Shown piece after piece: positions 8,959 through 56,461 of a stretch of 64,000 nucleotides of DNA. The stretch's first letter is position 1; every line of letters starts with the position of its first letter. Below the pieces are notes generated by a model. That model searched no databases and was not told the DNA's origin. It worked only from the letters and a program-made list of their open reading frames with translations. Source of the DNA: an uncultured Acidobacteriota bacterium (lineage in GTDB: Bacteria; Acidobacteriota; Terriglobia; UBA7540); the NCBI GenBank assembly GCA_963804995.1, contig CAWDSK010000003.1, forward strand, positions 416,001-480,000, given 5' to 3'. The position numbers were made by a program, and so were the translations under genes.

Positions 8959-9453
8959 ATGGCTGAGATCCTTGCAATCTATCCCGGATCTTTCGATCCG
9001 ATGACGAATGGCCACCTCGATTTGATTGAGCGGGGCAGCCATCTCTTCGATCGGCTGATCGTTTCGGTCCTGACCAACCTCGACAAGGACCCGCTTTTCA
9101 CGGTGGCCGAACGCGTCGAAATGCTCCAGGAAGCAGCGTGCCACATTCCGAACGTCTCGGTGGATACCTTCAGCGGCCTGCTGGTCGATTACGCGCGGCA
9201 GAAGCAGGCGCAAGTGATTTTGCGGGGGATTCGCGCTTTCACGGACTATGAATATGAGCTACAGATGGCGCTGATGAATCGCAAATTGGAGCCCGAACTG
9301 GAAACCGTTTTCTTGATGCCCGCTCTCTCCTACACCTACGTCAGCTCGCGCCTGGTGCGGGAGATCTTTCAACTCGGGGGTTCCGTCAAAGACCTGGTTC
9401 CCGCCCTGGTCGAAGAGCGGCTTCGTCAGAAAGTCTTTCAAGGCAAGACGTAG
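8959..9453 (+). CDS. coaD: Pantetheine-phosphate adenylyltransferase
   Basis: YPGSFDPMTNGHLD, RGIRAFTDYEYE, VSSRLVREI. Confidence 0.97.
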   Translation: MAEILAIYPGSFDPMTNGHLDLIERGSHLFDRLIVSVLTNLDKDPLFTVAERVEMLQEAACHIPNVSVDTFSGLLVDYARQKQAQVILRGIRAFTDYEYELQMALMNRKLEPELETVFLMPALSYTYVSSRLVREIFQLGGSVKDLVPALVEERLRQKVFQGKT

Positions 9454-9472
9454 GAAGCGGATGAAGAAGGAC

Positions 9473-9545
9473 GTAGCGGCGGGTTTACCCCGCCATCAGG
9501 CCCGCGATCACGTGGCATAAAATGGCGGGGTAAACCCGCCGCTAC
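9473..9545. repeat. GTAG-ended REP doublet palindrome
   Basis: GTAGCGGCGGGTTTACCCCGCCAT..ATGGCGGGGTAAACCCGCCGCTAC. Confidence 0.75.
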
Positions 9546-17538: not shown

Positions 17539-18090
17539 TCAGGAGTTCTTCCCGGCAGACTGGGTGGCCAAGCGCTTGATGATCATTTCGAAGCGAGCCG
17601 ATGCCAGGGCAATATTCTCCAGGACATCCGCGGGCAGTTCGTCGAGGTCTTCCTCGATTTCCCCTCCCCCGCCTTTCTGGCCGGCGCTCAAGCGGGCAGT
17701 AGCCACGCGAAGACGGTCCGCCAGGAAAGTCGCGAGTGACAGGTAGAACCGCGAAGCAAATCCCAGATCCTTCTGAAGCTTGGCACGGAGCGCAGCCTTG
17801 GGGACGGCCAGGACCTGAGAATCGACCGCGGCTTTGACGCTAGCCGAAGGAGGCCGCGAGTCGACAAACGAAATCTCGCCTACGATTTCGCCCGCCAACA
17901 ATTTGGCAATCTCCACGCCTCCGGAGTAGACCTGGAGTTGCCCATCAATCAGGATAAACACTGAATCGATGGGAACGCCTTGCTGGATGATCACTGCGCC
18001 CGCGCGGATCGCCCGGGCTTTACCCGCATTGGCCAGCCAACTGGCGTCACTATCGTCGAGAATGCCTAAAAAATAGAGCGCTTTTCGCAT
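17539..18090 (-). CDS. Cyclic nucleotide-binding domain protein associated with bacteriocin-type transport
   Basis: GEIVGEISF..RPPSASV cNMP-binding motif; last gene of the NHLM cassette. Confidence 0.85.
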   Translation of the reverse strand: MRKALYFLGILDDSDASWLANAGKARAIRAGAVIIQQGVPIDSVFILIDGQLQVYSGGVEIAKLLAGEIVGEISFVDSRPPSASVKAAVDSQVLAVPKAALRAKLQKDLGFASRFYLSLATFLADRLRVATARLSAGQKGGGGEIEEDLDELPADVLENIALASARFEMIIKRLATQSAGKNS

Positions 18091-18213: not shown

Positions 18214-21126
18214 TCAACTGAGCTGCCGTTTCGCTAATTGCGTAAAGAGCCCTCCCTGCGCCATCAGCTCGTCGTAGGAACCCGTCTCCACAAGGGAACC
18301 CCTGTCGAGGACACAGATCCGGTCAGCGCGTATGACCGTGGAAAGGCGATGGGCGATCACGACGCGTGTAGCATTAAGAGTTTTCAGGCTCCGGCTGACG
18401 ACCGCCTGCATGAGATTATCCAGAGCGCTGGTCGCCTCGTCGAACAGGATGATCCGTGGCTTGCGGGCGATGGCGCGGGCAATCAGCAAGCGCTGGCGCT
18501 GCCCACCGGAAAGTCCACTTCCGCCCTCGCTCACCACCGTATGCATTCCCATGGGCATGGCCTTGAGGTCGTCCTCCAGCCCCGCCAGGCGCGCGGCCTC
18601 CCAAGCATCATCGATGGTCAGGGTTCCGTCGCCCACGATATTCCGGAAGATGCTGCCCGTCATGAGCCGCGCATTCTGGAGGACCACCCCAATTTGCCTT
18701 CGTACCGCATGAACATCCAGATCAGCCAGATCCTGTCCGTCGTAATAAATGGCGCCGGAGCCGGGCGTCTCAAAACCCAGGAGCAAACGGAAAAAGGTTG
18801 ATTTCCCACTCCCCGAGGGCCCGACCAGAGCCACAAACTGACCCGAGGAGATACCCAGGGAAAAGTCACGCAAGACCCATGGCCCATCGTTTCGATAACG
18901 AAAATTCACGTGGTGAATATCCAGGGTCCCGGTTAACTCGGGGGGGGCGGTCTGGGTGGTCACGACTTCGGGCAGTGAGGTTAGAATTGGCTTGGCGCGC
19001 TCATAGAGCGGGATGACGTTGAGCACAGAAATCAGGGCGGAACTCAAGTCCATCGCCCCGGTACTGAATTGCACGAAGGCGGCCATGAAGGCCAGGAATT
19101 CGCCAGTCGTCAGCATCGGGGTGTTGGGGTTTTTCATCAGCGCGGTGGCGTAATAAAAGATGACGGCCCAGGCCAGCACGGGGAACGCCGAGTTGAAAAT
19201 CGAAACGAGGTTCGAGATTTTTCGGGCGCGCAAGGCGAGGACTCGCTGTTTCGCGAACTCGCGCGCCCAAACCGCAAAGGCGCGGGCTTCGGTTCCCGCC
19301 ACCCGGAATTTCGCGATACCGTTGATGAATTGCAGCGTGGTGCCGGCAATGCGCCCGCCCAACGCCGACACCTCGCGCAAGATTCTTACTTGCAGCCAGC
19401 CGCAGAAGGTAAAGACCAGGAAGGAACCAAACACCAAGGCGACGGCGATCAAGGCCAGGCTCCAACTGTAGTAGAACATCAGCGCACAGGACGCAATTGA
19501 GAAGATGCCGGTCAGGATGGAAGAGAGCGCGGACCCCGTAAGCGCCTCGCGAATCTGGCTGATTCCCAAACTCCGCCGGGCCAGGTCGCCGGAAGTGAAA
19601 TTGCGGAAGAAGGGTACGGGCAAGGCCAGCAGGCGGTCCCACACGGCCGCCTGAATCGCGGCCTCCATTTTGCTCTGCAGGCGCAGGGTCGCCAGGCTAC
19701 GGGTGAGCGTAAACAATGCCGTTGCCACCGCGCTGATCACCAGGAAAATGCTGAACTCCGCCAGCGCGGAGTGCTGGGCGCCTGGAATAATCGTGTCAAA
19801 AATAATGCCCGTAAAGACCGGCGTGGCAATAGCCAACAGGCCGGCGGCAATCCCCATGAAAAGGACCGTGGCAGCGTCACCTCCACAATCCCTAAGCCCG
19901 AAAGCCAGAACGTCTCGCAGAGTCAGCGCCTTGGGGGGGAAAGGGCGATAGAAGACATAAGCGAAGCCGTTGAGCTTGTCGGCTAGTTCTCCGTCCACGA
20001 GGGTTTTCACGCGGGTGATGGGATCATAGACTTGATAATTTCCCCGGCCCGGCAACAGCGCCACCGGCCGCTTGTCTTGCTCAAGAAAACCAACCATGGG
20101 CGCGCTTTCCTGGTTCCACCACTTGCCCTTCAGCATCACCTGACGCGTTCTCACCCGGGCCGCCTGGGCGATGGCGCTCACCGGATCTCGCTGTTTGATG
20201 AGCTCCAAGGCGCGAGGCACGAGGGGGATTTGAATGCCGCTGGCGCTGCCCACCAGACGGCAGACTTGAAGCAGAGGATCCAATCCTCCGGTCTCCACCT
20301 CCCAAGGGCTCTTCTCCCCGCCCCGCAACGGCTCGGCGAGTTTGTACAGAGCGGCCTCGAACACATTCGCGTCGGCTTCCGCCACTGCCCGCAAACGCGC
20401 CCGGGATTTCAGCTCATCTCTGCGCAACTGGATCACGAGATAGGCGAAGACCTGTTCCTGGAAATTTCGCAAGCCCGACCACCGCGGGTCAGCCTCCAGC
20501 CACTCTCGCGTATCGAGGCATCCCACTTGTGACTGTGGGGCGCACTTGAGCCAAGCCGTACGGCTTACCGGGAAAAACCTTCCCGCCTCGATCGGCGGCA
20601 TCTGGTCATCACCCAACAGGCTGGAACTTCCTTCCAGGTGACGAATCCATACCACGCCCAGGAGTGGGAGGACAGCCGTGGGCTTACTCTCCACCACGAT
20701 CTCCGCGCCCGGAGCCAATTCCTGGAATTCCTTGGGGGCAGGCTTGTCTGCCACCGCCGAGCCCAGATTCTCCACCCACTTGTCGATGAAGGGCAGGACA
20801 GATTCCGGCGAACCAGCGGCGGCCTGCTGGAGTTGTTTAAGTTGCAGGCAGAGCACCTTCGATCTCACCGCCGCGTTGGCGATCACTCCGAAAGCGCCAT
20901 CGGGCCGCTCGACAAATCCCATCACCGGATTGCCGGCTTCCACACGGATGAAATGATGCCGGGCGCCGGACGGCTCCCCCTCACGCATCTCCACCAAAAA
21001 GAGGTTGAGTTTCCCCTCCAACACCAGCCACATCTTCTCCGGGTCCTGGAGGGAGAGCGGGACCCCGGGGTGCAAATCCAGAACGACCCCTTGCTCCTCC
21101 AGCCGGGTTATTTGCGTGATGTCCAT
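18214..21126 (-). CDS. NHLM-type bacteriocin export ABC transporter, permease/ATPase (no peptidase; cNMP-fold-like N-terminus)
   Basis: QAAVWDRLLALP TM domain, GPSGSGKS, LSGGQRQ, ILFDEATSALD; long N-terminal extension. Confidence 0.9.
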   Translation of the reverse strand: MDITQITRLEEQGVVLDLHPGVPLSLQDPEKMWLVLEGKLNLFLVEMREGEPSGARHHFIRVEAGNPVMGFVERPDGAFGVIANAAVRSKVLCLQLKQLQQAAAGSPESVLPFIDKWVENLGSAVADKPAPKEFQELAPGAEIVVESKPTAVLPLLGVVWIRHLEGSSSLLGDDQMPPIEAGRFFPVSRTAWLKCAPQSQVGCLDTREWLEADPRWSGLRNFQEQVFAYLVIQLRRDELKSRARLRAVAEADANVFEAALYKLAEPLRGGEKSPWEVETGGLDPLLQVCRLVGSASGIQIPLVPRALELIKQRDPVSAIAQAARVRTRQVMLKGKWWNQESAPMVGFLEQDKRPVALLPGRGNYQVYDPITRVKTLVDGELADKLNGFAYVFYRPFPPKALTLRDVLAFGLRDCGGDAATVLFMGIAAGLLAIATPVFTGIIFDTIIPGAQHSALAEFSIFLVISAVATALFTLTRSLATLRLQSKMEAAIQAAVWDRLLALPVPFFRNFTSGDLARRSLGISQIREALTGSALSSILTGIFSIASCALMFYYSWSLALIAVALVFGSFLVFTFCGWLQVRILREVSALGGRIAGTTLQFINGIAKFRVAGTEARAFAVWAREFAKQRVLALRARKISNLVSIFNSAFPVLAWAVIFYYATALMKNPNTPMLTTGEFLAFMAAFVQFSTGAMDLSSALISVLNVIPLYERAKPILTSLPEVVTTQTAPPELTGTLDIHHVNFRYRNDGPWVLRDFSLGISSGQFVALVGPSGSGKSTFFRLLLGFETPGSGAIYYDGQDLADLDVHAVRRQIGVVLQNARLMTGSIFRNIVGDGTLTIDDAWEAARLAGLEDDLKAMPMGMHTVVSEGGSGLSGGQRQRLLIARAIARKPRIILFDEATSALDNLMQAVVSRSLKTLNATRVVIAHRLSTVIRADRICVLDRGSLVETGSYDELMAQGGLFTQLAKRQLS

Positions 21127-21132: not shown

Positions 21133-23349
21133 CTACACCGCTTCAATCAGCCTCCGGTAGGGGCCGTCCATCCGGATCATTTCCTCATGGGTGCCGCGCT
21201 GCACCACTTCCCCGCGTTCCAGAACGATAATCTCATCGGCGTCGCGAATGGTGCTGAGACGATGGGCCACAATCAGGCACGTGGCCCCCCGCCGGCGCAG
21301 ACTGTCATCCACGTATTTTTCGCTGTAGGCGTCAAGCGAACTGGTGGCCTCGTTGAGAATAAGAATGCGCGGATCGTTGACGAGCGCGCGGGTGATCTCC
21401 AGGCGTTGCCTCTGCCCACCGCTCAGGTTGCGCCCACCCTCTTCCACCCAGAATTCGTAGCCATTGGGAAGGCTGGTAATCTCATCGTGAATCCCCGCAT
21501 CCTGGGCGGCCTGGACCAGGGACGCATGTTCGACGGTGGCGTCCCACATGGTCAGGTTGTCGCGCAGGGTTCCATCGAACAGAAATATCTCCTGGTCCAC
21601 CATGGCAATGGAATTATTCAGCACGCCACGAGGAATGGTGCGGCGCGGCCGGCCGTCGAATAACACTTCACCCGACCACGGCTGATAAAGCCCGGAAACA
21701 ATTTTCGACACGGTCGACTTGCCGCTTCCCGAGGCGCCCACCAGGGCCACGCGCTGCCCCGGCTTCAGGGTCAAACTGAAATTGGTAATCAGGGGCGGTT
21801 CCAAGCGGCTATAGCCAAACGTCACGTCCCGCAGTTCCAGGTGCCCGGCGAGGCGCTCCTCGACGGCAGGGCTTTGTCCCGCGAGAGTGGCAGGCCCAAC
21901 TTGAGGGTCGGGTTGGTATTGGAGCGTATCGTCCAAGCGGCTGAGGTCGCCCTCAATCTCCTGAGTCTTGCTGCCCAGATTCACCAATTTGTTGACGGGA
22001 TCGATGAAGCTGGTCATCAAACTCTGGAAGGCGATGAGCATGCCCATGGTCAGGAAGCCGTTCATCACGCGCAACCCGCCCAAACCGAGCACGGCGGCGG
22101 TATTGAGACCCGTCAGAAAGGAGGGAATGGCCGAGAGGAACACCGAGGACATTCCAAAGCTTTGTCCGGCATTGACGACTTTGGCCTGGTAACCCCCCCA
22201 GCGGGCAAAGAATTCGGACTCTGACGCAGAGGACTTGAGGGTCTCGATGGTCTGCAAGCCATTCACTGACACGCCCAGCAGGCACCCCTGCTCTTGCAGC
22301 AGGTGGCGGTTCTGGTCCACGCGCCGGCGCTGAACAAATCGCAAGGCCGCGATATTAAGCACCGCTATGAGAATGCCGATGACCGTCAGCAGAGCGTCAT
22401 ACTGAAACAGCAAGGCCCCATAAATCCCGATAAGAAGAATGTTGGCCAGATTCGTGGCCACATCCCCGGAGAGCAGGGTTGCTACCTGGTCGTTGAGTTG
22501 CAGCCGCGAGGCGACTTCGCCGGCGTAACGTTGGGCGAAAAACTCAGTGGGCAATCGCAGCACGTGCCAGAAAAACTTGGCGGAGGATGTCAGTGCCAGC
22601 TTCATCTCCACGTGCATCAAAGAGTCCTGCTGGAGAAGCGTCAGCAGGGCCTTCACGATCGCCGTGACCGTCATGGCCACCAACAACGGGGTCAGCCAAC
22701 TGGTCAGGCCTCCTACCAGAAGGTTATCGACATAGATTTTGAAAAATACGGGAATCACCAGGTTAGGAATGGCCAGGCCCAACGTGGCGAGCACGAGATA
22801 CAGGAGGGCCAAACGGCTTCCCGGAAGGCGCGAGGCCAGCATCTGGAAGACGCTGGGCTTTTCCCCACCCTTCTTAAAAGTGGGTTCCTTCTCGAAAACC
22901 AGGACGACGCCGGTGAAGGACTCATCAAACTCCTCATCGTCCACCCACCGGCGGCCCTCGGCCGGATCGTTGAGATAAACCTTTTTGTCTCCGAAGCCCT
23001 CCACCACCAGAAAGTGGTTGAAGTTCCAGAAGACGATCAGGGGCAGCGGCAACTCGCGCAGTTGCGCGGGTTCCTTCTTGTAGCCTTTGGCTTTCAGGCC
23101 GTAGGTGCGCGCGGCCTTCAGCATGTTGCTGGCTTTGCTGCCGTCGCGCGAGACGCCGCAAGCCACCCGCAATTCCTCCAGGGGAACGATTCGCCCGTGG
23201 TAGGCAAGGATGATCCCCAGCGCGGCGGCCCCGCACTCCACCCCTTCCATCTGCAATACCGTGGGAGTCGTTACCCTGCCACGGCGCAGCAAATGAGCGA
23301 GCGACTTGTGAGCCGGGACCGGTTTGGGATCGATGGCAGTTGTACCCAT
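21133..23349 (-). CDS. NHLM-type bacteriocin export ABC transporter with C39 peptidase domain
   Basis: [17 protein letters not shown] (Gln, Cys), FWNFNHFLV (His), LNDPAEG (Asp), GVSRDGS; ABC domain. Confidence 0.93.
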
Positions 23350-23627: not shown

Positions 23628-24881
23628 TTAACTCAGCCCAAGTTTGCCTTTGAAGAAGGGGAGCAGCAGGCTCACCGGCGGTTGCCGGCGTGTGATCACC
23701 TGCACGGTTGAGAGCGTGCCGCTGCTGATGGTAATCGCCGGGCCCCGGGACGACGACCACTTGAATCCGCTCAAGCTACTGGCATCGCGCTCCAATGTGA
23801 CTCTTACTTCCGTCACGGGGCCGCCCGCCATAATCGAGCGCACTAACGTTTCGTTTTGAAAATTGCGCATCAAGGCGTCGGAGCTGGCGGGAAACTCACC
23901 GACGTAAACCACTTTGCCGCGGATAAAACCAAACTCCTCGCGCTTAACCGTGGAAGGAGATATTTCCGCCTCCATCCCCGGCTGCACGGCCTTGGCTTGA
24001 AGGGAGGGCAGATAAACCAGCACCTCCAGGGTATTCCCCTGAGGCTGGATGCTAAGGATGGGACTGCCCGCAGTAACCAGAGTGCCCGGCACAGCCTTCA
24101 TCTCGATAACCTGGCCCTCGTAGGGACTTACGACGCTGGATTGTATGGCCATCAGGTTTTCCAGGCTCGCCAGGTTCCGCCCCAACTCCGAGATGTGCTC
24201 TTCCGCGTCCTCTTTGAAGTGTTCCGGATCGGTCCGCGCTGCGAATTGATCCGCGTCAATGCGTTTGAGTTTTGCCCGGTCAGTTTCGATTTGACCCTTG
24301 AGCTCAACCAGGTGCTGCTCATCCTGAAGCACCTGCTGCTTCGTAACCAGCCCTTTGGCAAGAAGTTGATTGTCGACCGTGATTTGCTCAGTCGCGATCT
24401 TTACCTGATCTCCGACCTCCTGGATTTCCCGCTCCGTGTTCACCCTGTCACGCGCCAGCGCGTCCACTTGGAGTTGGGCGCCTTTCTGGCGCGACCCGAT
24501 ATTGCGCTGTAGGTCTTCTTTCGCGTCGTCGAGGGCGGCGCGCGCCGTGCGGATTCTTTCCAACATCTGGGGATCCGAAACCCTGGCGACCAACTGATCG
24601 GCTTTTATCCGGTCCCCCAGATTAGCCTTGATGTCTGTCACCAGCCCCGGACCCGAGGTGACGACGTTCAAGACGGTTCCGGCCCGCACGATGACTCCGG
24701 AGCCGCTCACCTTCGTAGCGATGGTCCCCGCATAGCCCCAAACCATGGCGACACCCAGAATGAGAAACATTCCGGCCAGCGCCAGCCATCGCTTCGCCCC
24801 GGTTACCCGCATGATGGTGTCAAGCTGTTCCGGGGAAGACAGCCGCTCAAGGGAAGCTTTTCGGAAGATACTGGTGTCCAT
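23628..24881 (-). CDS. NHLM-type HlyD family secretion (membrane fusion) protein
   Basis: IFRKASLERLSSPEQLD N-terminus, PSTVKREEFGFI, FKWSSSRGP. Confidence 0.93.
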   Translation of the reverse strand: MDTSIFRKASLERLSSPEQLDTIMRVTGAKRWLALAGMFLILGVAMVWGYAGTIATKVSGSGVIVRAGTVLNVVTSGPGLVTDIKANLGDRIKADQLVARVSDPQMLERIRTARAALDDAKEDLQRNIGSRQKGAQLQVDALARDRVNTEREIQEVGDQVKIATEQITVDNQLLAKGLVTKQQVLQDEQHLVELKGQIETDRAKLKRIDADQFAARTDPEHFKEDAEEHISELGRNLASLENLMAIQSSVVSPYEGQVIEMKAVPGTLVTAGSPILSIQPQGNTLEVLVYLPSLQAKAVQPGMEAEISPSTVKREEFGFIRGKVVYVGEFPASSDALMRNFQNETLVRSIMAGGPVTEVRVTLERDASSLSGFKWSSSRGPAITISSGTLSTVQVITRRQPPVSLLLPFFKGKLGLS

Positions 24882-24887: not shown

Positions 24888-26498
24888 TCATTCCTTCCCG
24901 GCCGGCGGTTTGGGAGCAGCCGGAACGGGAACGGTGTAGAAAACCTCGCAATCGACCGATTGCACGGTCTTATCCGGTTCGACGATCGAGCCGGTGGCGA
25001 AGCGCAACTGGGTCAGTGCCAGCGCATAGCCGAGTTCAGCGTTCACCTGGTCTTGCTCCGCTTCCGTCAGCCGGTCCTCCAGCGTCAACACATCCACAAG
25101 CTTCCCCTGACCCAATCGATACCTATCGCGCTCGCCTTCCAGCGCCTTCTGGGAAGCGACCGCAGCCTCCCGCACTCTCTGCAACTGGAGCGCGGCGTTC
25201 CGTACGCCCCCCACGGCTGTCACCACGGAAGCCATGATGGATTCGGACGTTTGGAGGGTGTGAAGTTCCGCCTGGCGAAGGCCGGATTGTGCCAGCATCA
25301 ACGCTCCGGAAGCGGCATTGTTGCGGGGCGGAAAGCGGTAGGTGACGCCTACACCGGCGTCCGGTCCATGCATGGAGCGTCCGGGAGCGCTGAGATAGTC
25401 ACCGAAGCTGCTGCCCAAGTCGATGCTCGAGTACCCCGTGTTCAGGTTCAGATTGAGCTGGGGCAAGAGGCCATTCCTGGCCGGCACGAGCAGGGCTTTT
25501 TGTTCTGTTTCGCGCTTCTTGGCTGCCAGGTAATCCGCGCGGCCCTGGAGCGCCAAGCTGAAGAACTGTTGCAGCGAATGGGCATTCAGAACGGCCAGGG
25601 CATGGCCATCATCGATCGGGAATTCCTCCATTGGCATTCCCACGTCTGCCATCTGGTCGACGGTTAAACCCATGGCCAGGGCAAGTTGCTGGAGTGCCGC
25701 GAGGAGGTTCTGCTCCGCCGCGATGCGCGCCGCTGACCGGGTGGCCAGATTGGCGTTGACCTGATGGATTTCAGCCTGCGCCACACGCCCCGCGTCAATC
25801 AGCGTCTGGACGTTTTCCACGTAAACCTCGCCGCGCGCTTCGGATTCCTGAGCCACCTTCAGGCTTTTCGCTGCGCCCACGGCATTCCAATAGCTGGAAG
25901 CAGTAGTCGACAAGAGGCTGCTGATGTTCTGGTTGAGGTCCAGCAAACTGGCCTCAACCTCGATTCCCGCCGCGGTCTCCGAAGCCGCCACTACGCTGCG
26001 CCCGCGCCCCCGGAGCAGCGGTACGGTCACTTGAAATGCCAGTGTGGAGAGATTGGTGCCCCCCAGGTTGTAGAAGTTGTCCGTGGTCCGGGTGGTCAGG
26101 AGGCTCGGGCTGATCGTCACACCATTGCGGTATTCCTTGCTGGCACCGATGTCCAGAGTCGTCAAGTTGCTGACATCGTTGCTGATCATGAGCCCCACGA
26201 TGCTAGCCTGCCCCCGGTCGTAGAAATTAAGAGGAGTGTTGATGCGATTCTGAGAAAGGGTGGTTTCAAAGACCGTGTCGAATAACCCGGTCGCCTGCCG
26301 GACCGCTGCCCGGCTGGCAACAACTTGCTGTTCCTGAATATGCAGGGCGGGCTGGTTCGCGAGGGTCGATTGCAAAGCCTCCACCAGGCCCAGCGGCTGG
26401 GAAGGAGGTCCGCTGGACTGGCCGAAGGAGCGCAGGCAACAAACTAGTAGAAGGGATCCGACAGCGAGTGCCGACCGCCGGCACTGCAAGCTGTTCAT
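24888..26498 (-). CDS. TolC family outer membrane efflux protein
   Basis: Signal peptide from MNSLQ (AGGAG upstream), PLLRGRG, two OEP repeats, ERDRYRLGQG..DVL. Confidence 0.88.
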   Translation of the reverse strand: MNSLQCRRSALAVGSLLLVCCLRSFGQSSGPPSQPLGLVEALQSTLANQPALHIQEQQVVASRAAVRQATGLFDTVFETTLSQNRINTPLNFYDRGQASIVGLMISNDVSNLTTLDIGASKEYRNGVTISPSLLTTRTTDNFYNLGGTNLSTLAFQVTVPLLRGRGRSVVAASETAAGIEVEASLLDLNQNISSLLSTTASSYWNAVGAAKSLKVAQESEARGEVYVENVQTLIDAGRVAQAEIHQVNANLATRSAARIAAEQNLLAALQQLALAMGLTVDQMADVGMPMEEFPIDDGHALAVLNAHSLQQFFSLALQGRADYLAAKKRETEQKALLVPARNGLLPQLNLNLNTGYSSIDLGSSFGDYLSAPGRSMHGPDAGVGVTYRFPPRNNAASGALMLAQSGLRQAELHTLQTSESIMASVVTAVGGVRNAALQLQRVREAAVASQKALEGERDRYRLGQGKLVDVLTLEDRLTEAEQDQVNAELGYALALTQLRFATGSIVEPDKTVQSVDCEVFYTVPVPAAPKPPAGKE

Positions 26499-26828
26499 CG
26501 GGGTAATTTTCTCCTGCTGATCTTGGTGGTTATACAGCGACCGCTTATAAGTCCGCTCGGTTTCCTGGGGTGGGGCCGGCTCGCAGCCAACCTCTTTCAG
26601 GCCCACTCATGACGTGGGCTATCATTCCTGCTTCTGTTTTCCTGAGGCCTGAACTACTTTCTACGTTACGCCGCCACAGGCCCAGCTAACGCAAGGTTGT
26701 AGGGGTACGACTTGCCGTACCCTTTAAAATTTAATGGCGCGACAGGACCATTAGGGGACAACCAGCCTGTGGCCCTACCATAAGGCAGCACCTCGTGACA
26801 ATTGTCAAAAATTGGGTGCTACAGCGAG

Positions 26829-26946
26829 CTAGGAGCCTGTCGGAGATAGATTTCGTTGTACGTAGAATTAATAACTTAGCGAGATTCGAGTGTCTGTAAG
26901 TTGTTGATTCTTCGTTGACGAATTATTATTTCCGACACACTCCTAG
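26829..26946. mobile_element. MITE with CTAG at both ends and GAGYSTGTCGGA inverted repeats
   Basis: CTAGGAGCCTGTCGGA..TCCGACACACTCCTAG with an AT-rich interior. Confidence 0.7.
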
Positions 26947-26955
26947 CCTCTGTCC

Positions 26956-27084
26956 CTAAAAGAACTTGATCCCGCCGGACGCCTTCTCCAAGTCCTTGTC
27001 CGTGAGCTCGTCCTGCTTGTCCCAGACAGGCTTTGTGGCTTCCTGGTTCGTCTGGATCATCTTTTTTTCTTTCTCTTCTGCCAT
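26956..27084 (-). CDS. Double-glycine leader precursor peptide, 42 aa: MAEEKEKKMIQTNQEATKPVWDKQDELTDKDLEKASGG-IKFF
   Basis: Translated by hand (below the ORF-track cutoff). GAGGAG RBS 5 nt before ATG; ELTDKDLEKASGG leader motif; same strand as and upstream of the C39 exporter cassette. Confidence 0.85.
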   Translation of the reverse strand: MAEEKEKKMIQTNQEATKPVWDKQDELTDKDLEKASGGIKFF

Positions 27085-27784
27085 CGGGGCTCCTCTTTTT
27101 AGATAGGCTGAAACGATGATGCCACTCAAACTGTAAATGCAAGTATTGTCAGTCTACTTAGCTAACCACCGCTGGAAATACGAACAGCCCCCCCACAATA
27201 TGTCCGAAGTTTAGCACCAGTGGGAGAGGAGTCAAGTCCAAAATTCACATGGAACCGGCAAGTAGTCACGATCCTGCCGATGGCTCGGAATACCCATTCG
27301 TATGGCGAGGCGGCGCAAAGCCTTCGATCTCAAGAATGCCTCTGGAAATCAGTCCCGCGATCATGCAGGCAAACTCGGCGGGGCCCTGAGCAAAAGGTCC
27401 AGAAATTTGTCACAGGGACTTTGCGGTAGAAGGTCAAGAAATTCGTGGGTGAGAGGGTGTATCGCCGGAAAGACATAGTCTTTCGATTTTGGTGAGCCGT
27501 CGGGACTCTTCCACCGAGCAGACAAATCGTCCGTACTCCCAATCTGACCCGATGATGGGAAACTAGCCCCCTGTGTTAGTCATTCCTGTGTTAGTCATTA
27601 GGGTATTGTCAAGGACTGGTTACCTTAAGCTGCTGCTTCGGACGTCAATGTGCCATTGTCCAAAATTAGAACACCTTTCGCTGCGACTTATTTTGCAGGA
27701 TCAATCCAATTTTGCGACAATTATTGGGTTCGCACCCTTTTGCGTGCGGACAAACCGGCTGTACACTAGACACCACGGAGCTTT

Positions 27785-29272
27785 ATGAGCAGGAGGCCAA
27801 CTGTGCGCAACTTATTGAGAACTGTGGTATGGCATGGATTCTGCCCTCGCCTCACCCTCGGCCTTATTTTTGCCGCGTGTCTCGCGCTACCTGAAATGGT
27901 CGTGGCTCAAGCCCCCCCAGCCGCCACCACTCCTGACTTCATAGGTCAGTTAAGCCGCTCGTCGGAGGCGCTGGTCAAGAAGGTGGCGCCGAGCGTCGTC
28001 CAGATCATGGCCATTGGATACGGACCTCTGCAGGAGAGCAGCCAGACTGAGACCGGCCTGGTCATCGGCCGCCAGCGCGCCATCGGTTCGGGAGTAATCG
28101 TTGACCCGGACGGATACATCATGACCAATGCCCACGTGGTTAGTGGCGCCCGGCGCATCCAGGTAGTCATCAACGCGGCTGACGCCGGAGGATCTCCCGC
28201 CCGCGCCTTAGCTTCGCACGGGACCACCCTGGAGGGCCAAATCGTGGGAATCGCCCGCCAGATTGACCTCGCTTTGATCAAGGTCGAGGCGCATGGGCTT
28301 ACGGCGCTGCCCATTGGCGATTATCGGAAGCTCCTGCAAGGCCAAATCGTTTTTGCTTTCGGAAGCCCGGAAGGCTTGCGCAACTCCGTGACCATGGGTT
28401 TGGTGAGCGCCGTGGCTCGCCAGCCCGATCCCGACAACCCGATGATCTACATCCAAACCGATGCGGCGATTAATCCTGGAAACAGCGGCGGACCGTTGGT
28501 GAGTGTTGAAGGTGAATTGGTCGGAATCAATACGTTCATTCTGACGCAGTCCGGCGGCAACCAAGGATTGGGATTCGCGATTCCCAGCGGCCTCGTGGCC
28601 CTTGCCTACCCTCAACTCCGCAAATACGGCCACACCCATCGCAGTCAAATTGGAGTGTCGGTGCAGACCATCACTCCGGCTATGGCCGCTGGCCTGGGTC
28701 TTTCCCGAGACCAAGGTGTCATCGTTTCGGATGTCCTCCCGGGGGGACCCGCGGACGGCGCTGGACTGAAGATCCAGGACATCATCGTGAGCGTGGACGG
28801 TCGCCCCATCGACAGTCTGCCGATGTTTGGCTATTGCTTCTATTTGCATCATCTGAGTGAACCGATGAAGCTTGATGTGCTGCGCGGCTCCACTCCCATG
28901 CATTTTGAAGTGCCGGTCATCGAGCAACCCCACAAGGTCGACCGGCTGATTGATCTGGCCAACCCCGAAAAGAACCTCATCGCGAAGCTGGGCATCCTGG
29001 GCATTGAGGTCAACAAGAGCCTTGCCGATTTGTTGCCGGACCTCCGGCAGTCTTCCGGAGTCATCGTCATCGCGAGGGCCGCGGAGTCAGGCTTTTCCGC
29101 GACTTCCCTCGCTACCGGGGATGTCATCCACGCCATCAATGGCCTGCCCGTGATCAGCCTGGCGTTCTTGCGATCCCAATTGGAAAGCATCAAACCCGAC
29201 GAGCCGGTGGTCCTTCAGATCGAACGCGAGGGCGCCTTCACGTACCTCAGTTTCCAGATGGAAGCACCGTAG
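27785..29272 (+). CDS. HtrA/DegP-like serine protease with two PDZ domains
   Basis: GSGVIV, TNAHVV, DLALIK, QTDAAINPGNSGGPL; signal peptide. Confidence 0.92.
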   Translation: MSRRPTVRNLLRTVVWHGFCPRLTLGLIFAACLALPEMVVAQAPPAATTPDFIGQLSRSSEALVKKVAPSVVQIMAIGYGPLQESSQTETGLVIGRQRAIGSGVIVDPDGYIMTNAHVVSGARRIQVVINAADAGGSPARALASHGTTLEGQIVGIARQIDLALIKVEAHGLTALPIGDYRKLLQGQIVFAFGSPEGLRNSVTMGLVSAVARQPDPDNPMIYIQTDAAINPGNSGGPLVSVEGELVGINTFILTQSGGNQGLGFAIPSGLVALAYPQLRKYGHTHRSQIGVSVQTITPAMAAGLGLSRDQGVIVSDVLPGGPADGAGLKIQDIIVSVDGRPIDSLPMFGYCFYLHHLSEPMKLDVLRGSTPMHFEVPVIEQPHKVDRLIDLANPEKNLIAKLGILGIEVNKSLADLLPDLRQSSGVIVIARAAESGFSATSLATGDVIHAINGLPVISLAFLRSQLESIKPDEPVVLQIEREGAFTYLSFQMEAP

Positions 29273-47937: not shown

Positions 47938-48969
47938 TTAATTGGAGGGTGGTGCGGAGCCAAAGGGTGCGCTCATCGGATTCATGCCGCCCTGGGGAGG
48001 GCCAAAACCGGGTTGCATGGGTTGCTGCCCTGGTTGCAGGGTTTGCCCAGGTCCCATCGGCCCTGACATGCCGCCCCCGGAGGTTCCCACCTGAATCCCA
48101 AAGACGCCCAGATCGATACCGGTGAATTCCCACTCATCGTAGTGTTGATGCTTATTCCAAATGATGATGGATCCGTGATGACTAGTGGGAGCAACCCCCA
48201 CGATGAAGGCTCCCTGGATGTCGCTGCCGCCTCCAAACATAGATGAAGAAGTTTGAGGGCCCGTCTGGCCGACTTGGGGCGATACCGTGCTCTGCCCCGA
48301 CCCCCCAAAGGAACCTGGCTGAGAGAACATGCCACCTTGTGGGGAGATCATGCTCTGCCCTGGTCCCCCAAAGGAGCCCGGCTGAGAGAACATGCCACCT
48401 TGTGGGGAGATCATGCTCTGCCCTGGTCCCCCAAAGGAGCCCGGCTGAGAGAACATGCCACCTTGTGGGGAGAGTTGATTCTGTCCAGGCCCCCCGAAGG
48501 AGCCCGGCTGATTCATCTGGCTCAATCCACCCATGGACAAACCGCCAGCCCCCAATCCCGCGGGGTTGGGTTGGTTGGCGTTCAAGGGCTGGTTTTTCGA
48601 GTCGATCAGCACGCCCGCCGCATTGGCGTGAATGAAACGCCACTTCCCCTTCCGGTCCAAGGGATCGGAATATTCCTTGCGGAGAAATCGCATGCCGTTG
48701 GTCCCCATCAACTCTTTCACACTGACGGGGTAGCGGTTGAATTTACGGTGGAAGAGCGCCACGGCAATGGCGTACTGCTTGCCACGAAAAATCGTCTCCT
48801 TTTCGCGCTCCCGTTGACCCTCCTGATAAACGCTGGGAAGGGTGGCCGTCAAGGCCACGAGCAGCAACGTGGCGATCATCATAACAATGATCAGCACCAT
48901 GCCTTCCGCCTCGCGCCCTCGGGCTCTACTGCGGGATAGGCAGTTCCGTGGTTTCGTGTGAAGCCGCAT
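47938..48969 (-). CDS. Pseudopilin/GspK-like T2SS-T4P protein with internal 21-aa repeats
   Basis: EG/MVLIIVMM hydrophobic helix, REREKETIFRGKQY, RFLRKEYSDPL, YDEWEF. Confidence 0.75.
   Translation of the reverse strand: MRLHTKPRNCLSRSRARGREAEGMVLIIVMMIATLLLVALTATLPSVYQEGQREREKETIFRGKQYAIAVALFHRKFNRYPVSVKELMGTNGMRFLRKEYSDPLDRKGKWRFIHANAAGVLIDSKNQPLNANQPNPAGLGAGGLSMGGLSQMNQPGSFGGPGQNQLSPQGGMFSQPGSFGGPGQSMISPQGGMFSQPGSFGGPGQSMISPQGGMFSQPGSFGGSGQSTVSPQVGQTGPQTSSSMFGGGSDIQGAFIVGVAPTSHHGSIIIWNKHQHYDEWEFTGIDLGVFGIQVGTSGGGMSGPMGPGQTLQPGQQPMQPGFGPPQGGMNPMSAPFGSAPPSN
48275..48510 (-). repeat. 63-bp coding tandem repeat, about 3.7 units (QPGSFGGPGQSMISPQGGMFS)
   Basis: GAGAGAACAT recurs at 48321, 48384 and 48447. 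Confidence 0.9.
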
Positions 48970-49490
48970 CTTCGACTGAAATCGTTGTAGGAGTTATTTT
49001 TATGACCTTGTATTTTTGAGCCGACGACGTCGCCTACGTGAACAACCATGGCCTGGTCCTGGTAGGAAACAAAAGCTTCACCCCCACCTCCCGGCACTTC
49101 ATTGTAGCCCATGGGTTTGATCGGGGGCGGAGGGGGTGGAGGCGGGGCGGCCGGCGCCGCTCCAGCCGCCACTTGTACAGAACCGGGACCCGCTGCCGGC
49201 ACAACCCCACCATATTCGAACGGATTTCTCTCGCCGTCCGGTAGCGGACGAGCGTCAAGTTCCTTCAAAGTTTCCGTGTGCAAACTGGGATCATATCCCG
49301 CCAGATCGTCGGCAGCCCGGACGACGCCCCTTCCCGCATGCGTTCGAACCTTGCTGGCGGCGCCCGGGAAGCGCCAGGCGCCTGCCGCCGGAACGCTCTT
49401 GTAGCTCGTCACGAGGTGCGCGACAAGGAGCACGCACAATAACCCGAGAATCCCAGTCCCCCACTTTTCGATGCCAGGTGATAGTTTCAT
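48926..49490 (-). CDS. PilP/GspC-like assembly protein; apparent frameshift in the T run at 49013-49017
   Basis: TM, RNPFEY, poly-Pro, then PMGYNEV..VVHVGDVVGSKYKVIKITPTTISVED after correction. Confidence 0.65.
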
Positions 49491-50035
49491 GGTATTAAAT
49501 AAAGGTCCGCGACCAGACGCAAACCGAGCGTTCCATTTTCACCCGCCGCCAAGCTGAATTCACGAATCAGGATGAACTCTTTCGCAGTCTCCAAGCCATG
49601 GGAAAATTTCACGATCTTCGAATAAGGCCCATCCACGGTGATGTCGAGCCCCAGCCGTTCCAGCGGATCCTGGTGTTTAGAGTCGAGCCGATAAACCACG
49701 TTGGTAACCTGCACGCCTGACGCATCGGAGACCTGCCGGAGAAGATGCGCGGCTTGGGAGAAACCTCGCTTGCGGGGAGGGATGCCGGCGGCCGTGAAAT
49801 CCTTCAGTTGCTCGCCCGCCTGAGGCAGAGCCGCTTGAAACTTTTCGAGCCTTTCGATCCGGACTTCCTGGTCACGCACGCTCTGGCGCGTTTCCGAATA
49901 TTGTTGCTGCTCAGAAGCGATCCTATACCCCAACGGCCGGTAAGCGGCGAAGTAGAGGACAACGTCCAAAACCACCAGCCCCAGGCCGGTAATTTCCACG
50001 ATCCGCTTCACAATTTGACGTTGGGTTCTGCGCAT
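49487..50035 (-). CDS. pilO: PilO/GspM-like protein
   Basis: TM, coiled coil, ITVDGPYSKIVKFSHGLE. Confidence 0.75.
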   Translation of the reverse strand: MRRTQRQIVKRIVEITGLGLVVLDVVLYFAAYRPLGYRIASEQQQYSETRQSVRDQEVRIERLEKFQAALPQAGEQLKDFTAAGIPPRKRGFSQAAHLLRQVSDASGVQVTNVVYRLDSKHQDPLERLGLDITVDGPYSKIVKFSHGLETAKEFILIREFSLAAGENGTLGLRLVADLYLIP

Positions 50036-50107
50036 AGGATCGACACTCGCAAATCGAAATTCGAAACTCGCAACCGCCCCTTTGTTCACGCTCCGAAAGG
50101 AGGGTCA

Positions 50108-50758
50108 TCACTTGGTTCGGTTTTCGAGTTTCGGTTTTGGCTTTTCGGCCCCTTCTGGCTCCTGACTTTTGACTTCTGACTCCGCCCCGGCAGCTCCCGG
50201 CAGGTAATGCGCGGCGCAAGCTATATTCACCTGTCCGGACTGCACGCCTTCTTCCTGAAATCCCTGATTAATAATCGTCACATCTTTGAAGTCCGGAGCG
50301 TCTTCGAGGTCGCTGAGGAACGTCTCAACGGCCTCCTCACTCTTTCCGCTGATGGACATGCGCACTACGATCTCGCCTTCCCGGGAGGTCAACGCCAAGC
50401 CGGTCAGCCGCGCTTCGTCGGGCAAGAGATCAGCAATCCGCGCGGATAGTTCCGTCAGGGATAGTTGCTTCTGGTCGATCAGCGTATTGACAAACTTTGC
50501 CTCGCCGAGCAAGGCGCGATACTCCGGTTTCTCAAGGTCTTTGCGAATGCCCGCTTCCTTCTTGCGCAGATCGTCCTCATGTTGCTGGACTTCCGCCACC
50601 TGGCTTTGGACTCCGTGAAATTCGCGGTACTCCCGGTTCCCTGAAACCCCCAGCAGCACAAGTCCGAGTACACCGACCAGCGTGGCGGGAATGCCCCACA
50701 CCAGGGCGTAACGGTTGCGCGTGCTATCAGCGGCGGAGAGGTTAAGAGTGATTCTCAT
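50108..50758 (-). CDS. pilN: PilN-like protein
   Basis: MRITLNLS, TM, LPDEARLTGL, FLSDLEDAPDF. Confidence 0.8.
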   Translation of the reverse strand: MRITLNLSAADSTRNRYALVWGIPATLVGVLGLVLLGVSGNREYREFHGVQSQVAEVQQHEDDLRKKEAGIRKDLEKPEYRALLGEAKFVNTLIDQKQLSLTELSARIADLLPDEARLTGLALTSREGEIVVRMSISGKSEEAVETFLSDLEDAPDFKDVTIINQGFQEEGVQSGQVNIACAAHYLPGAAGAESEVKSQEPEGAEKPKPKLENRTK

Positions 50759-51729
50759 CGTGGTTCGTTCCGATTCGCAATCAGGCCGGCAAAGGGCATT
50801 CCAAAATGTTGAAAGGTCTCACGCTCATCGCCGTGGAGCACAGTTCCCTGGGCAAAATCCCCCGCCAGCGGACGGAGTTCGCGACCCAGCGTCTTCGCCA
50901 GGATCTCTCGCATCTCATTTCCGGCAGGAGGACGCGCACAGAACCAAACATTCTGGATCTGGACGCCAAGTTGGTCCTGGCACGTCGCCAGGATACGTGT
51001 CGCTTCGCGCGTGACCTCCTCGAGGTTATCGGCCTCCGCCGCGCCCTCCAGCACCCTCGTCCTCCACAAGCGCACGCGATCGAACTCAACCACCACCGCG
51101 GTCAAAACGCCGGGACACAGATGCAGCAGAAGCTGTCCCTCCCTATCCACGGGGAGCAGCGGCAGCAAGGCCACGCTCACCGGCAGGATCAGCGCCGGCC
51201 CACCGTTAAGGGATTCGAGGACCGCTTCGTACTCCGCGAGCACGGAGCTGCGGACGGCTATTCCCAATATCTCCACCTGACGCGGCTGTTTCGCCAAAAC
51301 CTGAAAACTCACGCGCGCCTCTTCCGGCGGAAAAGGAAGGAACTCTCGCATCCGCCAGCGGATCAACGATTCCGCTTCGCGTTGGGCGTCAGGGAGGGCT
51401 TCGAACTGTAGCACCGCCACACGCGCCGCTAAGTCGGGGATCAACAGGCCGAACCTTCCGCCGCCCATGCCCACCAAACCGGCTACTTCGGCGACGGCTT
51501 TGTGGACCACCGCCTCACTCGTGATGTTGGTCTTGTTCAGGGAAGGCGCCAGCGCCCCGGCATGGAGTTCGCGAATCCCCACCCGCTGGATATGTCGCGC
51601 GCCACCCTCCAGACGGGCCCCCACCACAAAACCGGGCTCCAACTCCAGAACCACGGAAGGCATGACGAAGTGCGCCGTGCTCACCTGCCCGTCCAGCCCC
51701 AGCCGTTTTTTTAGGGTCACCCAATTCAT
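50755..51729 (-). CDS. pilM: PilM/GspL-like protein
   Basis: LLIPD..RVAVL, LIRWRMREFLPF, VLAEYE; operon position. Confidence 0.72.
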   Translation of the reverse strand: MNWVTLKKRLGLDGQVSTAHFVMPSVVLELEPGFVVGARLEGGARHIQRVGIRELHAGALAPSLNKTNITSEAVVHKAVAEVAGLVGMGGGRFGLLIPDLAARVAVLQFEALPDAQREAESLIRWRMREFLPFPPEEARVSFQVLAKQPRQVEILGIAVRSSVLAEYEAVLESLNGGPALILPVSVALLPLLPVDREGQLLLHLCPGVLTAVVVEFDRVRLWRTRVLEGAAEADNLEEVTREATRILATCQDQLGVQIQNVWFCARPPAGNEMREILAKTLGRELRPLAGDFAQGTVLHGDERETFQHFGMPFAGLIANRNEPR

Positions 51730-51950
51730 ACTTGCTTACCTCGGGATACGGGATACGGGACACGGGGTACGGGAGACGGAGCACAGGAGACAGGGTTTGT
51801 GGTAGGGGCTGAAAGTCGGTCCCAGCGGGTTCTCAATACCCTGATTGGAGCACTCTTCCTCCACACATTCAACTCTTTGTAAATCTGGATCACAAATCTA
51901 CCTTCCCCCCGTCACTCGTATCCCGTGCCCCGTGTCCCGTATCCCGGCTC

Positions 51951-53555
51951 TTACTCAACAAAAGTAACCTTGTTAACTTCCCGCAAAGTCGTCAGCCCCT
52001 GCTGAACCTTCTCCAGCGCCGAGTCTCGCAACGAGAACATTCCTTCCTGGCGGGCAGCCTTGCGAATTTCTGAGGACGGCCGTTTCGCGAGGATCATTTC
52101 CCGGATACTGTCGGAGAGTGCCAGCAGCTCACCAATCGCGGTGCGCCCGCGAAATCCCGTCTGGTTGCACTCCTGACATCCCTGCCCTTCATAGAACGTC
52201 ACCTCCCGCCACGCCGCGGGGTCGAGCCCAGACTCCTCCAACAGCTCGATGGGCACGGTGACGGGGCGCTTGCACGCTTCACAGATGGTGCGGACCAGCC
52301 GCTGCGCCAAAATACAATTGAGCGCGGAGACAAAATTGTAAGGTTCCACCCCCATGTTAAGGAACCTGCCCAGAACATCCACCACATTGTTGGCGTGTAC
52401 GGTGGTGAAGACCAGGTGTCCGGTGAGCGCCGACTGGATGGCGATCTGCGCCGTCTCGTTGTCACGAATTTCGCCCACCATAATCTTGTCGGGATCGTGG
52501 CGCAAAATGGAGCGAAGTCCCCGTGCGAAGGTCAGCCCCCGCTTCTCGTTTACCGGAATTTGCGTGATCCCGCGAAGCTGGTACTCAACCGGATCTTCAA
52601 TGGTGATGATCTTGTCCTCATCGCTCTTGATTTCAGAGAGCGCGGCATACAGTGTAGTGGTCTTGCCGCTGCCCGTGGGACCGGTGACCAGCACCATGCC
52701 GTAAGGCTCACGGATGAAGCGGCGCAGCCGGCGGATTTCCCGGTCCGCCAGCCCCAGCACCTCCAGGCGCAGGGAGTGGAATTTTTCGTGCAGCGATTCC
52801 TTATCGAGGATACGCAGTACCGCATCTTCGCCATGAATCGAGGGCATGATGGACACACGGAAATCGATGGGGCGCCCGCGATATCGCACCCGGAAGCGCC
52901 CGTCCTGGGGAACACGGCGCTCCGCAATATCCAATTCCGCCATGACCTTGATGCGCGTAATGAGGTTGGACTGAAACTCCCGTGCCAGGGGCGCCATGGC
53001 CTGCTGCAACACACCATCAATTCGATACTTCACCACGACGGAGTTGTCACGGCTCTCGATATGAATGTCGCTGGCGCGCTGCTCCAGCCCCGCAAAGATG
53101 ATCGAGTCAACCAACCGGATCATGGGGCTGACGTCCCGCTCCTCCACCAGGTGTTCGAGCGAAAGCCCCTCACCGGCCGCTTCTTCGTCACGGATCACGT
53201 CCAGACGAAATTCTTCTGTGGCATCGTCAAGAACGCGCTGCGAGGGCTCCGTCTGTTTCAGGAAATCCCGTACCTGGCTGGGCGCGGCCACGCGTACGAG
53301 CAATTTCCGGTCCAGCTTGACTTCCAGCTCATCCAGCCGCGCCAGGTTGGTGGGATCTGCCACCACGATTACCAGTTGATGGTCGCGCCCCTCCAACGGC
53401 AGGAACTCATAGTGGAGCATCAGTTCGAGAGGGATGGTGCGGAGCAGATCCCCGTCCGGGTGTGAATCCCGCAGGTCCACGAAATCGAACTGATAGCGGG
53501 CCGCAAGCTGGCGCGCCGCCTCCAGTTCCTTCAGATCGACTTCCTTTTCCGCCAA
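51951..53555 (-). CDS. pilB: GspE/PilB assembly ATPase
   Basis: ASDIHIE, LDIAERRVPQDGR, GPTGSGKTTT, EDPVE, LRHDPD, TGHLVFTTVH; TTG start with GGAGGT RBS. Confidence 0.93.
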   Translation of the reverse strand: MAEKEVDLKELEAARQLAARYQFDFVDLRDSHPDGDLLRTIPLELMLHYEFLPLEGRDHQLVIVVADPTNLARLDELEVKLDRKLLVRVAAPSQVRDFLKQTEPSQRVLDDATEEFRLDVIRDEEAAGEGLSLEHLVEERDVSPMIRLVDSIIFAGLEQRASDIHIESRDNSVVVKYRIDGVLQQAMAPLAREFQSNLITRIKVMAELDIAERRVPQDGRFRVRYRGRPIDFRVSIMPSIHGEDAVLRILDKESLHEKFHSLRLEVLGLADREIRRLRRFIREPYGMVLVTGPTGSGKTTTLYAALSEIKSDEDKIITIEDPVEYQLRGITQIPVNEKRGLTFARGLRSILRHDPDKIMVGEIRDNETAQIAIQSALTGHLVFTTVHANNVVDVLGRFLNMGVEPYNFVSALNCILAQRLVRTICEACKRPVTVPIELLEESGLDPAAWREVTFYEGQGCQECNQTGFRGRTAIGELLALSDSIREMILAKRPSSEIRKAARQEGMFSLRDSALEKVQQGLTTLREVNKVTFVE

Positions 53556-53590
53556 GCAACACCTCCGAAACGGGACTCGGGGCACGGGAT

Positions 53591-53741
53591 TATGAAAATA
53601 GCTGTGCCGAAGGCACCTTGGAGTGCGGTAGCAGCAGCTACCGCCTTCCGCCTTCGGTTCATACGGCAAATGTACTAGGGGCGGAGGAAGAAAGGCGGTA
53701 GCTGCTGCTACCGCACTCCAAGGCGCTTCGCGCATTTTCAT
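53591..53741. repeat. Long palindromic REP-like element
   Basis: ATGAAAAT..TTGGAGTGCGGTAGCAGCAGCTACCGCCTT..AAGGCGGTAGCTGCTGCTACCGCACTCCAA..ATTTTCAT. Confidence 0.75.
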
Positions 53742-53926
53742 CGTCGGTGGTGCGCCCCAGCCGCATGGGCGTCTGTGCGGAAAGCCTCCGGCTTTCCGGC
53801 CCGGTCCGCTTCATTTCTCTCCCTCCGCGCCATGTTCCGAGTTCGGCGTTCCGAATCCGAACCCCGAACTCCTAACCCCGATTTCCGAAGCCCGTGTCCC
53901 GTTTCCCGAATCCCGTGCCCCGGTCC

Positions 53927-56451: not shown

Positions 56452-56461
56452 ATTCGATTCC

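Follow-up and report, generated by a model that had tools for sequence, protein, structure and literature searches.

A double-glycine leader peptide gene with a predicted four-residue core upstream of an NHLM-type export operon in a genome of the Acidobacteriota

The window, which is the whole stretch of 64,000 nucleotides analysed here, carries a small peptide gene on its minus strand. Reading of both strands placed its 42 codons between an ATG at 27084-27082 and a TAG at 26958-26956. Translation of the reverse complement of 26956-27084 gave a 38-residue leader ending in Gly-Gly, followed by Ile-Lys-Phe-Phe (IKFF) and the stop codon (Table 1). The first-pass annotation had described a 42-aa ORF with a GAGGAG ribosome site; the translation that it quoted matched exactly on re-reading, and what it had omitted was the minus strand. 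It had also noted that the generic ORF list lacks this frame, where it indeed appears only in the form of a 57-aa frame with a TTG start (26956..27129). In the frame of the peptide gene, a public gene call (P0042) begins at Met9 and gives 34 aa. Met1 is favoured over Met9 as the start because of the conserved N-terminus of the family and the ribosome site. GGAG-type sites were found at a matching distance from the ATG in the peptide genes of relatives.

Table 1. Positions of the peptide gene, the neighbouring genes and repeats, and the type VI secretion cluster of the source genome.
Feature	Position	Strand	Basis or remark
Shine-Dalgarno-like GAGGAG	27090..27095	-	Read directly; 5 nt 5' of the ATG
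Leader, residues 1-38, ending Gly37-Gly38	26971..27084	-	Translation; profile match E 2e-20
Core, residues 39-42 (IKFF)	26959..26970	-	Translation; ties for shortest among 194 unique family cores
TAG stop, right behind a T4 run	26956..26958	-	Read directly
HemK/PrmC-like (MTS, DUF7059) methyltransferase remnant	27269..27522	-	tblastn and blastn against the intact G042 and G009 genes
MITE-like repeat, 118/119 bp	26828..26946		Terminal inverted repeats of ~20 bp starting CTAGGAG; CTAG-bounded; 9 nt past the stop
Short GC-rich hairpin-forming repeat in the spacer	26695..26756		2-3 other copies in the source genome
TolC-type outer-membrane channel	24888..26606	-	Pfam OEP 113.8 bits; likely true start Met37 at 26498
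NHLM-type HlyD adaptor	23628..24881	-	TIGR03794 315.8 bits, cut-off 156.2
ABC1: C39 peptidase, permease and ATPase	21133..23349	-	TIGR03796 1083.7 bits, cut-off 853.3
ABC2: permease/ATPase without peptidase	18214..21126	-	TIGR03797 944.1 bits, cut-off 709.4, residues 283-969
Cyclic-nucleotide-binding protein, bacteriocin-transport-associated type	17539..18090	-	cNMP_binding 63.4 bits; TIGR03896 126.4 bits, below cut-off 161.05
T6SS cluster (L100)	G000 C6:343000-362900		TssB, TssC, Hcp, ImpE, TssA, TssE, TssF, TssG

A whole-genome search with the leader profile matched the peptide at E 2.0e-20 over profile positions 1-37, and a search of the 171,634 six-frame ORFs of the source genome gave E 1.1e-14; the ORF is therefore not due to chance. 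It was the sole full match to the leader profile in that genome. Comparison of the leader with eight relatives gave a dN/dS of approximately 0.2 (0.10-0.30 where dS was defined) on a short, saturated alignment, which indicates, within the limits of such an alignment, that the leader has been under long-term purifying selection. The peptide gene is confirmed as a real gene of a double-glycine leader family. No family was found for the peptide in Pfam or NCBIfam at E 0.01, and Rfam returned none at E 1 within 26300-27900. Chance expectation for a promoter and terminator scan was 0.9 and 1.8 sites, respectively, and the observed counts of 1 and 2 therefore carry no evidential weight.

Downstream of the peptide gene, on the minus strand, lie a spacer of 457 nt and then genes for TolC, HlyD, the C39-ABC transporter ABC1, the second transporter ABC2, and a cyclic-nucleotide-binding (cNMP) protein. 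All five export genes are full length and uninterrupted, and three of them (TIGR03794, TIGR03796, and TIGR03797) score above the NCBIfam equivalog cut-offs. The TolC start at Met37 is backed by orthologue alignments that begin at residues 36-37 in five of eight loci. HlyD orthologues with 74-80% identity were full length in eight genomes of the same genus and fragmented in a ninth. The peptidase domain of ABC1 is encoded at approximately 22882-23265, with the Pfam Peptidase_C39 match at residues 29-156. ABC2 carries an N-terminal extension of 280 residues and is followed by the separate gene for the cNMP-binding protein; because of this extension and this gene, export may be under cyclic-nucleotide control. 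The earlier statement that the precursor sits directly upstream of a C39 exporter is loose: the spacer, TolC, and HlyD intervene, and the C39-ABC gene, with its active-site Cys and His, is approximately 3.6 kb downstream. Elsewhere in the window, a cNMP-binding MscS-type channel is encoded at 61485-63107. A minus-strand cluster at 47941-60685, which resembles a type II secretion or type IV pilus system, combines genes for a secretin, a T2SSE-type ATPase, and a T2SSF-type platform protein with several for small proteins that lack annotation.

The C39 domain of ABC1 matched LahT150 (6mpz), its closest solved homologue, at E 8.9e-49. Gln33, Cys39, His112, and Asp128 of ABC1 aligned to LahT Gln21 and to the catalytic triad Cys27, His101, and Asp117, respectively. 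The recognition residues of the leader are Leu27 (-12), Asp31 (-8), Leu32 (-7), Ala35 (-4), and Gly37-Gly38, in agreement with the double-glycine consensus as given by Bobeica et al. (2019, PMC6363468), namely hydrophobic residues at -4, -7, and -12, an acidic residue at -8, and a Gly-Gly/Ala/Ser end. Together with the NHLM/PCAT export operon and its retained catalytic residues, these positions bear out the initial assignment as a double-glycine precursor. In vitro, LahT150 is described as cleaving a synthetic peptide in which a four-residue tail follows the final 13 residues of a leader; Leu at -12 and -7 was important, an uncharged residue was needed at -4 (Thr was accepted), and positions -3, -5, and -8 were tolerant (PMC6363468). 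With Leu, Leu, and Ala at -12, -7, and -4, cleavage of the peptide by the C39 domain of ABC1 appears feasible.

Of 29 genomes in the genus, 12 gave matches to the leader profile, 34 in all, and some of these lie in tandem arrays of three to four genes. Nearly all of the 34 matches had an ATG and a GGAG-type site. The peptide matched the 38-residue leader profile over its full length and was 31-63% identical to 24 genus members. A large protein collection yielded 83 members at E 0.001, nearly all unnamed or "hypothetical" and one named "bacteriocin-like protein", and an exhaustive profile search of cluster representatives yielded 685 at E 0.001, of which 42 also reached E 1e-10. Across the phylum, 8 of 400 other genomes matched, partially and only over the generic end of the leader, so that the full leader looks confined, among those searched, to the genus and its metagenomic kin. 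Longer or fused forms (131-2000 aa) were absent among 8000 candidates, which is weak evidence, and a degenerate DNA pattern for the last ten peptide residues had no match in a metagenome contig collection. By these profile matches, the family is a large, unannotated group of double-glycine leader peptides of Terriglobia and related soil and peat metagenomes. Distant relatives (P0085, P0086, P0090, P0124, P0143, P0188, and P0206) are polyproteins of 3-10 tandem units, each unit with a double-glycine leader motif at its end and then a short core.

We collected 198 proteins of up to 100 aa, of which 196 had the leader motif, and obtained 194 unique cores. The cores are hypervariable, with lengths of 4-54 residues and a median of 14. 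Four residues were found in three of them, namely IKFF of the source genome, WKFE (P0046), and VLIY (P0057), and six or fewer in seven, including two related six-residue cores in different clusters (P0146 and P0151). Cys was present in 73 cores, and 29 had no Cys, Ser, or Thr. Given this length range, a short core is a trait of the family and IKFF is its extreme. The first-pass annotation had held that long cores in orthologues would mark IKFF as the result of a recent nonsense mutation; the spread of lengths and the two further four-residue cores gave no such picture. In a survey of the region upstream of TolC at eight loci (seven relatives and the source locus; stretches were fetched for eight of the nine relatives with an HlyD orthologue, and one of these was too short and was left out), a leader gene preceded TolC in four and none did so in the other four. 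Among the three relatives of this survey, the two tandem genes of G012 had cores of 6 and 9 residues, G024 one of 12, and G023 one of 15, and relatives' cores directly upstream of TolC had 6, 9, 12, 9, and 15. The G023 peptide gene upstream of TolC had no start codon.

Several of the long cores resemble the N-terminus of Hcp, the tube protein of the type VI secretion system (T6SS). Sub-threshold matches to Pfam T6SS_HCP, all in the core region, were obtained for 8 of 150 members (E 0.0015-0.22). We then compared 191 unique cores of at least six residues, each with 20 shuffles, with an HMM built from 27 Hcp proteins of Acidobacteriota genomes. Approximately one core in seven (26 of 191; 0.19 expected) exceeded the 0.1% shuffle level, and 36 of 191 (1.9 expected) exceeded the 1% level. 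The matches tile profile positions 2-30, 22-59, 56-68, and 115-147. Hcp-like members include P0005, P0028, P0036, P0077, P0080, P0093, P0106, P0109, P0114, and P0156, as well as P0157, P0158, P0169, P0176, and others. By eye, the three tandem peptides of the G042 array resemble three different Hcp segments. Five peptides with differing leaders, each with Phe as the final residue, terminate at a shared position in the first Hcp strand. IKFF shares I-K-F with residues 7-9 of the Hcp encoded at L079, a lead only, as four residues are too few to test. The source genome has a T6SS cluster with one Hcp (Table 1). A Ser/Thr kinase fused to an FGE-sulfatase domain is also encoded in this cluster.

Annotation of 12 loci around family members, covering 126 proteins, revealed the genes that accompany the peptides in relatives. 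A TPR/GT41 gene was located 3' of the peptide genes in 5 of the 12 loci. In G009 (L071, C665), the order is a HemK/PrmC-like methyltransferase (MTS, DUF7059), the peptide, TPR/GT41, gamma-glutamyltranspeptidase, TolC, HlyD, and C39-ABC. In G042 (L062, C63), a methyltransferase is followed by three peptides, TPR/GT41, a fourth peptide, TolC, HlyD, ABC1, ABC2, and cNMP. The cassette is conserved in the genus at L071, L062, L070, L064, and L060, with gamma-glutamyltranspeptidase in some genomes. In the literature searched, we found no description of a HemK-like methyltransferase, TPR/GT41, and gamma-glutamyltranspeptidase set for ribosomal peptides, and none of the papers listed combines the terms RiPP and GT41. 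Cys-rich family members adjoin LanM genes (DUF4135, LANC_like) in arrays at 2 of the 12 loci (L063, G020:C4; L067, G044:C320), so that several tailoring systems are served by a single leader family. A second leader type of approximately 50 residues, with cores of 8-10 residues, was observed at L061:8330-8587 and 9360-9536, L066:6231-6404, and L064:10930-11109. At two of the 12 loci (G005 and G023), the gene next to this second type encodes a RiPP radical SAM C-methyltransferase, and at two (G005 and G011) a SET-domain gene adjoins it. The radical SAM copy of G005 scored 541 bits on TIGR03975, and that of G023 is a Pfam radical SAM match of the same length.

The cassette of methyltransferase, peptide, and TPR/GT41, with or without gamma-glutamyltranspeptidase, is incomplete at the source locus. 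The methyltransferase survives as two pieces (27522-27394 and 27376-27269): its final 36 residues are fused to approximately 45 residues from the N-terminal third, and approximately 920 bp of the middle are deleted. DNA homology to the G042 peptide gene extends over 27087-26972, ends at the Gly-Gly codons, and resumes at 26552 in the TolC 5' region; between 26972 and 26552, where G042 has GT41 and another peptide gene, nothing homologous to the G042 cassette is present. No homologues of GT41, LanM, or radical SAM were detected in the source genome at E 1e-10, and gamma-glutamyltranspeptidase is absent from the locus, with homologues only elsewhere in the genome. The spacer contained no remnant of a family core, GT41, or gamma-glutamyltranspeptidase. 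Decay upstream of TolC was also seen in relatives, as GT41 fragments in G017 and as the start-less peptide gene of G023. On these alignments, the source locus is a reduced remnant of the tailoring cassette of relatives. The earlier remark that the composition of the core fits the lack of modification enzymes was misleading, as the peptides of relatives sit in an enzyme cassette that has been lost here save for the methyltransferase pseudogene. The source genome has a paralogue of the cassette methyltransferase at a distance of 8 kb from its Hcp gene; a link between the two was considered and rejected, as the paralogue is only 28-32% identical and lies outside the T6SS genes.

The MITE-like repeat has 10 other full copies in the source genome at 92-100% identity, nine of them at 98-100%, and a longer element with one end in common with it has three copies. 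The ends of the element, defined from the 10 other full copies, lie 9 nt beyond the stop codon, and truncation of the ORF by the MITE was thus ruled out. The MITE was also observed in many contigs of a peat metagenome with differing flanks, and the hairpin repeat reached a very high summed depth in one metagenome run. A search of 26500-27500 against public peat metagenome contigs found only the MITE and 26690-26737, and the four public runs that were mapped covered the MITE and the hairpin repeat and never the peptide ORF. A search of public runs yielded just two that contain the sequence, both at a low share. A second family member in the source genome (G000 C5:564992-566143), with a six-residue core, has its leader split by an IS5-like insertion, which suggests that the family is decaying in this genome. 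A small ORF with a ribosome site at G000 C2:232866-232991 has a distantly related double-glycine leader and a Pro-rich core of 11 residues, and its product is a possible further cargo candidate for the exporter.

The reading that we favour, at nearly even odds but on the lower side, is that IKFF is a cleaved and exported tetrapeptide, with expression, cleavage, and export predicted from the sequence. The C39 peptidase domain of ABC1 would likely cut the peptide after Gly38, and the tetrapeptide would likely leave through HlyD and TolC. Because the cassette of methyltransferase, TPR/GT41, and gamma-glutamyltranspeptidase is reduced at the locus, IKFF would be an untailored minimal cargo, and the peptide is the only intact cargo with the family leader in the source genome. 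Export of IKFF is weakened by the state of the surroundings: the methyltransferase is a pseudogene, GT41 and gamma-glutamyltranspeptidase are gone from the locus, a recently active MITE separates the peptide gene from TolC, the second family member is split by an IS, and the promoter scan is at chance level. We found no demonstration in the literature consulted of a four-residue cargo exported by a full PCAT. Orthologous exporters persist without such a peptide upstream in four of eight loci, so that the exporter appears independent of IKFF-type cargo. A vestigial gene, that is, a chance survivor in a dismantled locus with no useful product, with a core that was cut short or exchanged in the deletion of the GT41 region and an exporter kept for other cargo, would account for the 920-bp internal deletion in the methyltransferase, the stretch without G042-cassette homology, and the MITE in the spacer. 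The IS-split second copy, the GT41 fragments (G017) and start-less peptide gene (G023) in the genus, a four-residue core at the extreme of the family, and the other cargo candidate in the source genome agree with this. Such a relic, which the first-pass annotation did not consider, is a serious rival because the cassette is lost and a methyltransferase pseudogene lies beside the ORF, and we regard it as a real possibility, though clearly short of even. It is opposed by the intact leader, with its start codon, ribosome site, and all recognition residues, and by the two other independent four-residue cores and the two conserved six-residue cores. The remnants beside the peptide gene are 75-80% identical to G042, as diverged as intact genes, and the decay is accordingly undated. 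The core is hypervariable in every comparison, so that loss of homology past Gly-Gly is expected even in a functional gene.

The remaining explanations are each improbable to differing degrees. The stop sits right behind the T4 run, and the first-pass annotation had warned that one base fewer would give IKFFRDRG; our script reproduced this product for T3, with a stop at the TAG within the CTAG end of the MITE, and gave a 31-residue read-through into the MITE for T5. A homopolymer miscount of a true T3 run would yield a core of eight residues, which is among the modal lengths of the family. Nevertheless, we judge it quite unlikely: an A7 run earlier in the ORF keeps the frame of the N-terminus conserved in the family, and none of the five large operon genes is interrupted, which together give no local sign of indel errors, and several family cores end in Phe straight before the stop. 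The suggestion that IKFF is a quorum-sensing pheromone, secreted and sensed by a dedicated receptor as in ComC/CSP, is in keeping with the double-glycine leader and PCAT exporter, the pherotype-like hypervariability of the cores, and the sub-threshold ComC-family matches of family leaders. It gained no backing from the neighbourhood and seems unlikely, as neither a scan of 44 window proteins nor the annotation of the 126 neighbours in relatives turned up a HisKA, HATPase, or response-regulator domain, and known PCAT-exported pheromones are much longer than IKFF. We find it very improbable that the exporter is the target of the 38-residue leader or the uncleaved precursor, which might fill or prime the C39 site, with the core irrelevant, and to our knowledge such a leader-only function has no precedent. 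The purifying selection on the leader and the free variation of the cores would fit it, as would a structural model in which the bound leader locks the peptidase and nucleotide-binding domains together, as described for LahT (PMC6363468). Relatives, on the other hand, carry several such genes alongside tailoring enzymes, which argues that the cores matter. Finally, there is a slim chance that IKFF is the smallest of a class of exported peptides with Hcp-segment cores, a stump of the first Hcp strand, whose longer versions in five relatives share one end point, and that the family targets type VI secretion in its own cell or in a rival, either by mimicry in assembly or as a surrogate of Hcp that is sensed. 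A literature search combining Hcp, leader peptide, and double-glycine returned nothing related. If the Hcp-like peptides are functional, type I peptide export would be linked to type VI secretion, a link that we did not find in the literature searched.

Peptidase-containing ABC exporters are viewed as a means of secreting bacteriocins and pheromones that are some tens of residues long. ComC/ComAB and BlpC/BlpAB of streptococci resemble the present system in having a small unmodified peptide with a double-glycine leader that is exported and cut by a C39-ABC transporter; the present system differs in its diderm host, its far shorter core, and the lack of a sensor kinase or regulator gene next to the peptide. 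A class II bacteriocin has a core of approximately 20-60 residues and an adjacent immunity gene; here the core has four residues, and the interval from the ORF to TolC contains no gene for a small membrane protein. Curated leader models (ComC, Bacteriocin_IIc, L_biotic_typeA, TIGR01847, and similar) left the peptide unmatched and gave only sub-threshold matches for relatives. The cyanobacterial double-glycine bacteriocin clusters described by Wang et al. (2011, PMC3140520) likewise contain numerous precursors of small size (28-164 aa), often lacking annotation, whose cores are unconserved and which adjoin C39 exporters in Gram-negative hosts, whereas the present family, compared with those clusters as described, belongs to another phylum, has another leader family, and is accompanied by another enzyme set in relatives.

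The NHLM cassette (Haft et al. 2010, PMC2887384) is matched at the source locus by TIGR03794, TIGR03796, and TIGR03797, all present and above cut-off. In the account of that cassette, a given leader type occurs in varying combinations with tailoring enzymes such as LanM and radical SAM, a trait that our family shares, and the Gly-Gly of NHLP and Nif11 leaders lies on average at positions 83 and 70 (PMC2887384). In contrast, the peptide is neither NHLP (TIGR03793) nor Nif11 (TIGR03798), has a leader of 38 residues, and has no NCBIfam match, and TolC and cNMP-binding genes are also present at the source locus. The LahT150 system with ProcA/Nif11-type leaders, as described by Bobeica et al. (2019, PMC6363468), corresponds in the C39 match, the Gln, Cys, His, and Asp residues, Leu at -12 and -7, the small hydrophobic residue at -4, and Gly-Gly. 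The present leader differs from it in its 38 residues, with a conserved Lys/Glu-rich N-terminal half of its own, and the system differs in its diderm host, its TolC partner, and a natural cargo that would consist of four residues. Such a natural cargo, if true, would set the lower size limit of peptidase-containing ABC export, and if the IKFF gene is only a relic, it records the decay of a cassette with the pump retained.
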